Shown piece by piece: positions 23,376-26,300 of a DNA stretch of 64,000 nt. The position numbers were made by a program. The stretch is from Podarcis pityusensis (lineage: Eukaryota): the NCBI GenBank assembly GCA_964106645.2, contig OZ067045.1, one strand, 5' to 3'. Position 1 is the stretch's first letter. Each line of letters opens with the position of its first letter.

Positions 23376-26300
23376 GGTCTGCCGAGGGCATCTTGTCTTT
23401 AACCCTCCCCCCAACAAAACCTCTCACCCAGGAGCCAGCAGAGTTTGTATTTGAACACACAGCTGGTGGATGGGTGAGAAGTGGGTGGGGTGGGGTCCGC
23501 CCTCTCTCCCCACAACCGCAACACCTCACAGAAAGCCCCCGTGCACACAGCACCTGGGAGAAAAAGCAAACATTTAAAAACAGGAAAAACTGCTGAGGGC
23601 AGCAAGAAAGAGCTTGGAAAATAAGGGCCTGCTGCTGAGGGTGGCAAGGACATCTTCCTTTGGGAATCGATGGACCTAGGAAACTGGGAGGGGGAGGAAC
23701 TCATACAGAGGCTTTTGCTCCACCCGGCTCTCCATTCTGAATCCCAGGTGGCTAGTTCAGATGAGGTCCACCACGCTTTCCTGACTGTCCACGCACTGAA
23801 CGTGCTCACCGGCCTCCCTGCCCAAGGCCTGGCCATGCACTTCTCTAAGCTGGAGGATCCCCAACGTCCGTGGGCAGAGCTCATGAGGAGGTAGGAGGGG
23901 ATGAAGGGGGACAATCTCCCTCCCTCGGTAGGGCTGGGGCCATTGCAGTTTCAGCCTCATTTATTCCGTTCCAGCAAGACAAACCCTGATGGGCGCTTGG
24001 ACAGAAACAGCCCAATGCCCAGGGAGCTGAAACCTGGCACCTATAAGCTGCGCTTTGAGACGAGGGAGTACTGGGAGCAACAAGGATACAGCAGCTTCTA
24101 CCCTTATGTGGAAGTAAGTTTGGTTCCCAGATGAAACTCACAACTGGGGGGGGGGGAGGCTCCTTCCTACAGGACTGATGATGGCAGGGACCACCACTCA
24201 CTGCCCTTTGAGGGATGTAATTCTTGGCAGGAGAAGCACAACATTGGAAAACGGGAGAAATCAGCATAAACTTCACATTATGAAGGCTGCACGCCGTGAA
24301 GTCCCTCAGAAACCTGCAGGAAGAGGCCTAGGTGGTTGGTAGGAGAGCTAGATGTTGTGCTATGGGACATCCCTGAAAGAGCACAAAGCCAGAAGTGTGC
24401 CAGAACTGGGCACTCCGGACCAGGCATTTGTGCCCCTGACAAATGTCTTCTCATGGGCTAGGCCCAGTGCAGCGAAGAAAGGATCTCAGACCAAAGAGCA
24501 CTACCAACCTCCTGCTATTCCCCCCTCCCTTGTCTTTACACATCCTCTTGCTTGTCTCTCTCTTTAGATTGTCTTCACCATCACAGAGGAAGAAAAAGTG
24601 CACATTCCCTTGCTGCTCAGCCCTTATTCCTACACCACCTACAGGGGAAGCTAGTGGGAGACCGGCCAGCAGGAGGGGCTGCTTCAGCAAACCGGGGTGC
24701 CTGTTCTGAGAGAGCTGGCACAGTCCAGCGGATGGAGAGCTGTGGTTACATCCACGGCCACCTCTGGCCCAAGCCTCAGGCTGGGGGCTTGGCCATGAGC
24801 AGCTGCCTCGTAGTAAATGTGAGAGTAATCTAAAGACTGATACTTGTAAGCCTCTTCTTTTAAATTGGAGATGCCATGAATTGTGTCTGGGTCCTTGACA
24901 CACGTGTGCTCTACTGATTAGGTAGGGCTCCCTCAGTTGCTGGGGAACATGAGTGGGGAGAGGGCTGCTGCACTCACATCCTGATTGTGGGCTTCCCAGA
25001 GGTATCTGCTTGGCCACTGTGGGGAACAGGATGCTGGACTAGGTAGTCCTTTAGCTTGGATCCAGAAGTCAGGCTCTTCAGAGGTTCTCACATTGGATGG
25101 TGCTTGAGTGGACACAACATGGGTGTGGAGGACTTTGGAGGCTCTAGATAAGGTGGGATTAAGTAGTTCAGGGGCTCATTAATCAAGAGGAGGATGCTTT
25201 TCAAGTCCGCAAGCTCTGCCTTGACGTGGGTGGGAAAGAAAAAGGGAGGCTTTGCAGAGACTGAAGACTGAATAGCCCACCACAGGGCCTCTTTAATACA
25301 AATGAGGGCTGGAGCAGACACAATCTCATTCCAGGGGGCTGCTCTCTCCCTCCCTCCGTCCCCTCTACGGCCACAGCAGGAGCGGGACAGAGGCTTGCTT
25401 GCACACAAGGCTTAGGCTGAAGGCATTCCAAAGTATGATGTCAGGCTGTGCTACGTGGGGGTTGAGACAAACCCAGCAGGGCCCTGGCCCAGCGTGTGGC
25501 CGATCACGGAGGTCTCCAGGGGCTTGAAGCCCAAATTGTCCAAAGGGATCCCAAAGGCTGTGAGCTTGGCCTCATACGTCCGCAACAAGTCATTGTGGGC
25601 CTGCAGTGGGAGGCAATTGCAGGTTGAGGAGAGGGATCAAACATCACATGCCATAACACAGCCACCTAAGGCAACTTCTCTTGTCTATGGGTAATAGCCA
25701 ACCCAATGCACCCATGGCAGTCGCGGCTGCATCCATATTTCTCCAAAAGGATGCAAGAGAGCAGGAAAAGGCCAACTAAAATGGTTGCAGGCTAGACCAT
25801 TTCAAGGAACAAATGCTTAGAACAAACTTGTTAACTTAGAAAAATGGGGCTGAAGGTGAATATGATGCAACTTGGTAGGTCAGATGGAGCAGTGGCTAGT
25901 ACAACACTTGTCAAACCCATCAGCTGTTCACTGAAATGGGTAGGCAGTGGGCATTAGAAATGACAGAGGAAGTACTTATTCACACTTCTTAGCATTAACC
26001 TATGGAACTCACTGCCACAGGACAGTGAATTCCTGCTAGCATAAATGGCTTTCAAACAAGGCATAAGTAAAAGCCAACTGCTAGGGAAAATATATTTCTT
26101 TCCTGGGTTGTGTCTAAAGAGACCTGCTCTCTACATTTTGCTCCAACAGACATTCAAGTACAATTACAGGGTTCTCCTCAGCTGGAGCTCTTACCTTGCA
26201 CACTCTGGCTAGCTCATACTGCAGATCCTTGATGGCATTGTTTTTCGAATCCAGCACATCCTGTGAAGGAAGGTTGTTCAGGTGTTAACACATCAGGCAA

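Follow-up and report, generated by a model that had tools for sequence, protein, structure and literature searches.

A cadherin-HIUase exon series at the URAH locus of a Podarcis lizard points to a putative secreted enzyme shared by sauropsids

The DNA considered here, referred to as the window, is a stretch of 64,000 nucleotides from the lizard Podarcis pityusensis (assembly GCA_964106645.2, contig OZ067045.1). It contains three exons on the + strand (23748–23890, 23975–24113 and 24568–24654) that code for a domain of the HIUase/transthyretin family and are the HIUase-coding exons of the lizard orthologue of URAH, the gene for 5-hydroxyisourate (HIU) hydrolase (HIUase). Upstream on the same strand lie six further open exons (18496–22282), which encode a leader resembling a signal peptide, an RQKR furin site and the cadherin domains EC1 and EC2. 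All nine exons are open, with GT-AG boundaries throughout and no stop or frameshift, and the phase 0 end of exon 6 is compatible with the phase 0 start of exon 7. In an exon-by-exon comparison, 368 of the 369 whole codons agree with an NCBI protein model of 371 residues named ‘cadherin-1-like isoform X2 [Podarcis lilfordi]’ (P0005), which marks the source of the window as closely related to that lizard. We consider it fairly probable, from sequence comparison, that these exons belong to a chimeric gene present throughout the sauropsids, whose product would be a secreted, probably tetrameric and still catalytic cadherin-HIUase. The exons, and an open stretch in front of the seventh, are as follows.

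18496–18546, + strand: exon 1, an ATG and 17-codon hydrophobic leader resembling a signal peptide, with a phase 0 end and a GT donor; 17/17 codons agree with P0005 residues 1–17.
19664–19810, + strand: exon 2, a short prodomain remnant, a KRQKR furin-type site and the start of EC1; 49/49 codons agree with P0005.
20002–20145, + strand: exon 3, cadherin EC1; 47/48 codons agree with P0005, the one difference being L92F.
20651–20795, + strand: exon 4, the end of EC1 and the EC1-EC2 linker with DQNDNKP, matched in tblastn by cadherin-HIUase models, with a phase 1 end; 48/48 codons agree with P0005.
21206–21381, + strand: exon 5, cadherin EC2 (PF00028, E 4.6e-08, 33.8 bits, above the cut-off); 58/58 codons agree with P0005.
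22199–22282, + strand: exon 6, the last cadherin exon, with the end of EC2 (...TATAVIQ), phase 0 and a GTAAGG donor; 28/28 codons agree with P0005.
23670–23747, + strand: in-frame open stretch before the HIUase acceptor; its ATG at 23670 might serve as another start, for a HIUase that is unfused and lacks a signal.
23748–23890, + strand: exon 7, the first HIUase exon, with a phase 0 start, the linker VASSDEV and the catalytic His in LTVH; 47/47 codons agree with P0005.
23975–24113, + strand: exon 8, the second HIUase exon, with the Asp and Arg of DGR and a squamate-type loop one residue longer; 46/46 codons agree with P0005.
24568–24654, + strand: exon 9, the last HIUase exon, with His-x-Pro-x-Leu, the ...TTYRGS end and a TAG stop; 28/28 codons agree with P0005.

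A preliminary description of the window had pointed out the LTVH, DGR, VHIP and terminal YRGS motifs of a HIUase, as well as the change of DGRC to DGRL followed by a divergent loop, DRNSPMP. Separate translation of the three exons confirmed all four motifs, and translation of exon 8 confirmed the changed residue and the loop, so that the flagged features are real and well beyond chance. All three exons are preceded by AG acceptors and the first two are followed by GT donors. Throughout, searches with window sequence were run exon by exon and the exons were never joined. Against Pfam PF00576 (HIUase/Transthyretin; cut-off 25.3 bits), exon 8 alone scored 40.9 bits (E 3.6e-10) and exon 9 alone 40.5 bits (E 4.7e-10), both above the cut-off, while the whole P0005 model scored 117.6 bits. 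Solved HIUases, including the zebrafish enzyme (PDB 2h1x) and a reconstructed ancestor of HIUase and transthyretin, aligned to exons 8 and 9.

The cadherin half is recognisable at the same level of detail. P0005 matched PF00028 with 113.8 bits in two stretches, and its Pfam content is limited to PF00576, PF00028 and a weak PF25374; among the single exons, exon 3 reached E 2.8e-06 with 28.1 bits, slightly below the cut-off of 28.8 bits. The best solved matches to the cadherin part of P0005 were EP-cadherin (1q55, E 6e-77), cadherin-1 (E 2.3e-73) and cadherin-3 (E 2.5e-67), and sequence similarity places the origin of the 5’ exons in a type-I classical cadherin of the E/P/EP group. Leaders homologous to exon 1 were found in other squamate and bird models. 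The ESM Atlas model of P0005 has a predicted template-modelling score (pTM) of 0.53.

Beyond exon 6, the only candidate continuation of the cadherin reading frame lies in the HIUase exons. Searches by tblastn with seven longer cadherin-HIUase models and with P0005–P0007 matched no EC3, later ectodomain or prodomain exons or relics in the window. Among 142 open reading frames (ORFs) on the + strand between 24710 and 49156, Pfam found a Dysbindin domain and no cadherin domain, the catenin-binding tail being covered by Pfam alone. A further 144 ORFs at 1–19700 gave no Pfam match at E ≤ 0.01 besides one sub-threshold match, which was taken as chance; ORFs spanning a run of N at 12604–12733 were left out of all scans. 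Since no further cadherin exons were found in the window, the HIUase exons are the only possible continuation of the cadherin exons on the + strand.

The predicted fusion recurs well outside this genus. When the HIUase part of P0005 was compared with database proteins of 204–650 residues, both PF00028 and PF00576 were found in 48 of 68 matches, comprising 23 models from 18 squamate species, 24 from 23 bird species and one without a species name; none of the 16 remaining matches that were non-sauropsid or lacked a species name had both domains (0/16). A turtle model from Trachemys also carries the two domains, and in a kiwi model (P0093) and a tegu model (P0019) the end of EC2 runs into the same HIUase exon. 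Of the 73 members of an ESM Atlas cluster, 100% contain Cadherin and 99% Transthyretin, and the fusion cluster to which P0005 belongs has 12 member sequences. Leader, furin site and the position of the junction recur among 19 aligned fusion models, and some lineages retain a short segment of the start of EC3 before the HIUase exon. Identity between Podarcis and 17 other species is 53–64% in EC1, 54–68% in EC2 and 55–75% in the HIUase domain, which puts the conservation of the cadherin modules about level with that of the enzyme domain.

The missing peroxisomal targeting signal type 2 (PTS2) shows a similar distribution. The preliminary description found no upstream exon with an RLx5HL-type PTS2, and this stands: there is no plausible match on the + strand between 1 and 23900. 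The strict RLx5HL form and a broader consensus gave no usable match in the three + frames at 14000–23900, and a looser pattern gave four matches over 1–23900 (+), none of them plausible. Two of these follow an in-frame Met: one lies about 23 kb upstream of the HIUase exons, and the other is in a frame that differs from that of the exon beginning 43 bases downstream. Among database models, a PTS2-like nonapeptide precedes the catalytic His in 13/29 from mammals and 2/6 from amphibians, and in 0/128 from sauropsids (0/44 squamate, 0/1 tuatara, 0/3 turtle and 0/80 bird), because of which the loss of PTS2 looks sauropsid-wide. A HIUase without PTS2 had been presented as a feature of this reptile; that framing is too narrow, as PTS2 loss and the cadherin-HIUase are both predicted across squamates, birds and a turtle.

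The sequence just in front of exon 7 has features of its own. At 23706–23747 (+), immediately before the acceptor, the in-frame stretch RLLLHPALHSESQ has its Arg-Leu start 13 codons ahead of the acceptor, and the RLLLHPALH segment upstream of exon 7, with RLx6H spacing, fits none of the PTS2 patterns applied. In the turtle model P0024, RVTLQDVFGKLP starts 12 residues ahead of the equivalent junction. The distance from PTS2 to the catalytic His is 21–26 residues in frog and marsupial, and the corresponding distance for the RLx6H stretch here is 27. Speculatively, the RLx6H stretch might be what is left of the ancestral PTS2 leader after decay, in which case the fusion would use an acceptor created just behind that remnant.

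Ten channel residues are reported to be conserved in HIUases: His12, Asp50, Arg52, His103, Pro105, Leu107, Tyr116, Arg117, Gly118 and Ser119 (PMC13751858, a 2026 review). Two substitutions, Tyr116 to Thr and Ile16 to Ala, are described as enough to convert the enzyme to thyroxine binding (PMC13751858; also PMC4324301). These positions were mapped by motif and by an alignment of 163 named tetrapod models, and all ten residues are present both in the window exons and in P0005 (10/10). The channel-blocking Tyr116 is retained, and position 16 is Val rather than the Ala of transthyretin. The earlier proposal that the domain is probably still catalytic or urate/HIU-binding and not a thyroxine carrier thus gains from the complete site, the Tyr and Val16, while activity itself is predicted from these residues.

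Across sauropsids the site is not uniform. In birds every active-site residue is retained in 79–80 of 80 models. Squamates keep Asp50 in 31/44 models, Arg52 in 39/44 and Ser119 in 20/44; the other 24 have Asn119, the C-terminus reads YRGN in 23/44 models, and Ser replaces Asp50 in eight. In turtles, Arg52 is His and Arg117 is Lys in 3/3 models. Catalytic constraint seems, from these comparisons, to differ between sauropsid lineages. The Leu following DGR and the longer loop are general squamate traits, the loop having one residue more than in tuatara, turtles, birds, amphibians and mammals. The changes noted after DGR in the preliminary description are common to squamates.

In the mechanism that we propose, the URAH exons would serve as the 3’ end of the chimeric gene, with exon 6 spliced to exon 7. 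The leader would send the product into the secretory pathway, where cleavage by furin at RQKR would trim the N-terminus, and the HIUase domain would assemble a tetramer bearing four EC1-EC2 arms. This tetramer would hydrolyse HIU outside the cell, the substrate arising from peroxidase-driven or non-enzymatic oxidation of the urate that is abundant in a uricotelic animal; a minor unfused cytosolic isoform started at the ATG at 23670 may coexist with it. The preliminary description had suggested extracellular action. An extracellular enzyme is the simplest reading because the only upstream exons on the same strand are the leader and the cadherin ectodomain exons, in compatible phase, and secretion is in turn predicted from gene models and comparative conservation. 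The accompanying idea, that this would be a second secretion of the fold, can be kept for vertebrates; it does not hold overall, as enterobacterial HIUases are reported to be periplasmic (PMC4324301).

Published observations are compatible with these steps. HIU is reported to be formed extracellularly from urate by peroxidases and oxidants (PMC12107670), and N-terminal fusions to HIUase are described as tolerated in natural allantoin synthases (PMC13751858). Reptilian uricase is reported to have lost its peroxisomal targeting signal type 1 (PTS1) and moved to the skin, and Urah to stay highly expressed in the liver of chicken, canary, anole and turtles (PMC10517255). Continued liver expression of sauropsid Urah despite the shift of uricase fits a secreted cadherin-HIUase.

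The arms themselves have changed in this lizard. The Trp2 that directly follows the furin site drives the strand-swap adhesion of cadherins. It is present in 17/19 aligned fusion models and shifted by one residue in Rhineura; here it is absent, the sequence reading RQKRD-LQLLPPI (DLQLLPPI). With the EC1 Trp for the strand swap missing, the cadherin arms of this lizard have probably ceased to function in classical adhesion. The EC1 of Podarcis is also the most diverged among squamates, with 56% identity to Crotalus versus 66–87% for other squamates.

The surrounding genes agree with the assignment to URAH. A GAS8-like gene (PF13851 exons) occupies 26100–33000 on the minus strand and is convergent with the HIUase exons, a dysbindin-domain gene (PF04440) lies at 48125–48307 on the + strand, and the exons of an AFG3-like m-AAA protease (Peptidase_M41) lie at 58000–64000 on the minus strand. 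The HIUase exons are found at the genomic position orthologous to URAH, around which mammalian gene order presumably matches. Chicken gene tables list URAH beside DBNDD1 and CDH1 on chromosome 11 (PMC7667380, PMC6339939).

A second cadherin gene may begin at the other side of the locus. The minus-strand region 6385–6780 (match at about 6514–6630) has 40% identity over 40 residues to residues 22–61 of the Zootoca model (BLASTP, E 4e-06), and the segment at about 6514–6630 also gives a sub-threshold match to Pfam Cadherin_pro (E 0.029). By similarity, a classical cadherin probably has its first prodomain exon here, oriented away from the chimeric gene. This suggests that a full cadherin gene lies next to the chimeric one in a head-to-head arrangement. 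The GC content of 6001–8000, around this match, is 0.60, and this GC-rich segment could be a promoter island.

Several observations weigh against a secreted fusion enzyme. The fusion proteins in the databases are all computed gene models, in which adjacent genes can be merged and which can spread between species by homology. The Zootoca vivipara model ‘cadherin-1’ (P0006, 605 residues) is 98% identical to Podarcis in the HIUase domain and only 62% in EC1 and 68% in EC2, and carries a full prodomain and an EC3, neither of which is matched in the window; it probably joins a different cadherin to the URAH exons. As its cadherin part differs while the HIUase part is nearly identical, at least some of the fusion models are probably chimeric. 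Conservation of EC1-EC2 could also partly reflect gene conversion from the putative adjacent full cadherin. Exon 7, at which the junction falls, was on its own below the PF00576 cut-off (16.3 bits, E 0.016) and gave no match at E ≤ 0.1 in a search of solved structures. No AATAAA or ATTAAA occurs within 1.5 kb past the TAG stop (24655–26200, +), where a polyadenylation signal is not obvious. The squamate substitutions at Ser119 and Asp50 and the turtle substitution at Arg52 weaken the case for catalysis as a conserved role in all reptiles. Finally, the frame upstream of exon 7 is open contiguously back to 23625, with the ATG at 23670, and stand-alone models of 128–160 residues that start inside the same intron exist in many squamates and birds.

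The open frame with its ATG and the stand-alone models speak for an alternative with two transcription units, in which HIUase would be transcribed mainly from a promoter within 22283–23747 and start at the ATG at 23670 as an unfused cytosolic enzyme without PTS2, the cadherin exons being a separate truncated gene or decaying duplicate and the fusions read-through or annotation artefacts. The squamate models P0007, P0015, P0016 and P0018 read through the same acceptor, and the bird models P0036, P0042, P0063, P0073 and P0164, from five species, have a similar short MAFC/MASC leader running directly into the first HIUase exon, which suggests an unfused isoform alongside the fusion in birds. By eye, this bird leader resembles neither a signal peptide nor a PTS2. 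Fusion models that look chimeric (Zootoca P0006, and Gekko P0144 with cadherin ectodomain sequence past EC2) speak for the same alternative, as does the reporting of Urah liver expression at gene level only (PMC10517255). However, no stand-alone lacertid model was present in the best 120 of 1100 matches (101–324 residues), whereas the fusion cluster holds 12 sequences. The cadherin exons, moreover, are open, spliceable and conserved about like the enzyme across squamates and birds, yet have no other 3’ end on the + strand in the window, and the ATG at 23670 has T at −3 where that of exon 1 has A. We regard two separate units as unlikely, at perhaps one chance among several. Another possibility is that the fusion is real but that the chief role of its HIUase domain is that of a scaffold, which would tetramerise a soluble cadherin fragment able to modulate adhesion of the E-cadherin type or to act as a decoy for it, with catalysis incidental or fading. 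The substitutions at Asp50, Arg52, Arg117 and Ser119 in squamate and turtle models would suit such a role, as would the Trp kept in 17/19 fusion models and the Crotalus comparison with birds (EC1 65–75%, HIUase 55–62%). The window shows the opposite, with an active site of 10/10, the adhesive Trp lost and the most diverged EC1 among squamates, and the residues kept in 79–80/80 bird models would be unneeded in a mere scaffold; this explanation appears improbable. That a functionless URAH is drifting to a pseudogene in a uricotelic animal would accord with the loss of PTS2, the divergent DGR loop and the reported lack of liver uricase in sauropsids (PMC10517255). A relic of this kind is already contradicted by the open frame and by conservation, that is, by nine exons without stop or frameshift, the complete active site and the 98% identity of the Podarcis and Zootoca HIUase domains, and liver expression in sauropsids is reported as maintained (PMC10517255); we give it next to no credence.

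The secreted cadherin-HIUase that we favour can be set against several known systems. With the vertebrate peroxisomal HIUase (URAH; zebrafish, PDB 2h1x) it shares the PF00576 fold family, the same ten residues, the C-terminal YRGS and the adjoining GAS8-like and dysbindin-domain genes. It differs in lacking a PTS2 and in having a signal-like leader and EC1-EC2 in place of the usual N-terminus; in addition, Thr-His-Val is replaced by the squamate-type Val-His-Ala, DGR is followed by Leu, and the loop here is one residue longer. Transthyretin has the same fold and is described as a secreted vertebrate offshoot of HIUase (PMC4324301). Unlike the protein predicted here, transthyretin is reported to have lost the catalytic residues and to have opened the channel through Tyr116 to Thr and Ile16 to Ala (PMC13751858, PMC4324301), positions at which the window has Tyr and Val; the export signal of the window protein, furthermore, comes with cadherin modules.

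Urad-Urah fusions (allantoin synthase of plants, diatoms and bacteria; PDB 5z5m) likewise have another domain N-terminal to a C-terminal HIUase (PMC13751858), and exon 9 matches 5z5m. Their partner, however, is OHCU decarboxylase (PF09349), the next enzyme of the pathway, whereas P0005 has no PF09349 and its partner is an adhesion module. The enterobacterial periplasmic transthyretin-like proteins (PDB 2gpz, 2g2n) are a further case of a HIUase exported from the cytoplasm, thought to be active in urate-rich settings such as the gut of birds and reptiles (PMC4324301), but use a bacterial signal peptide, have no fused domain and are of independent origin.

On the cadherin side, the type-I classical cadherins (E-, P- and EP/C-cadherin) have the same signal leader, furin site, EC1-EC2 and DQNDN linker; in contrast to them, no prodomain, EC3-5, membrane span or catenin-binding tail was found in the window, and the Trp is lost here. 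The reptilian cysteine-rich uricase (CRUOX) is the preceding enzyme of the pathway; in the ancestor of reptiles it, too, is reported to have lost its peroxisomal signal and to have gained a new promoter and a new first exon (PMC10517255). CRUOX differs in being expressed in skin and not in liver, with no fusion reported, whereas Urah is described as liver-expressed and not co-expressed with CRUOX (PMC10517255).

None of the literature searched describes an architecture in which a metabolic enzyme is fused to cadherin EC domains. Literature searches, in which matches were judged mostly by title and opening of the abstract, likewise found no description of a cadherin-HIUase fusion or of a secreted or proteomically detected avian HIUase, and the word ‘cadherin’ is absent from the main text of the reptile uricase paper (PMC10517255) and of the 2026 review (PMC13751858). 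The architecture is already visible in public annotation, under names such as ‘cadherin-1-like’.

A wider proposal, which we put forward more tentatively and as a possibility only, is that URAH lost its peroxisomal leader when sauropsid uricotely arose, or close to that time, and that the 5’ half of an E-cadherin-like gene captured it. The product, made by birds and reptiles ever since, would be a tetramer secreted by the liver that clears reactive HIU derived from their very high extracellular urate and may dock to cadherin-bearing epithelia via EC1-EC2, and would represent a second, independent vertebrate plasma protein derived from the HIUase fold. If true, the case would resemble that of uricase, co-opted in the skin of reptiles.

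In birds and reptiles urate is excreted and the liver has no uricase, and the strong constraint on URAH (79–80/80 bird models) is in this respect a puzzle. A secreted HIUase, if true, would offer a role for the retained gene, namely the detoxification of HIU that arises extracellularly from abundant urate. It would also mean that the HIUase fold entered the vertebrate secretory pathway a second time, on this occasion with catalysis kept, which would bear on the origin of transthyretin.

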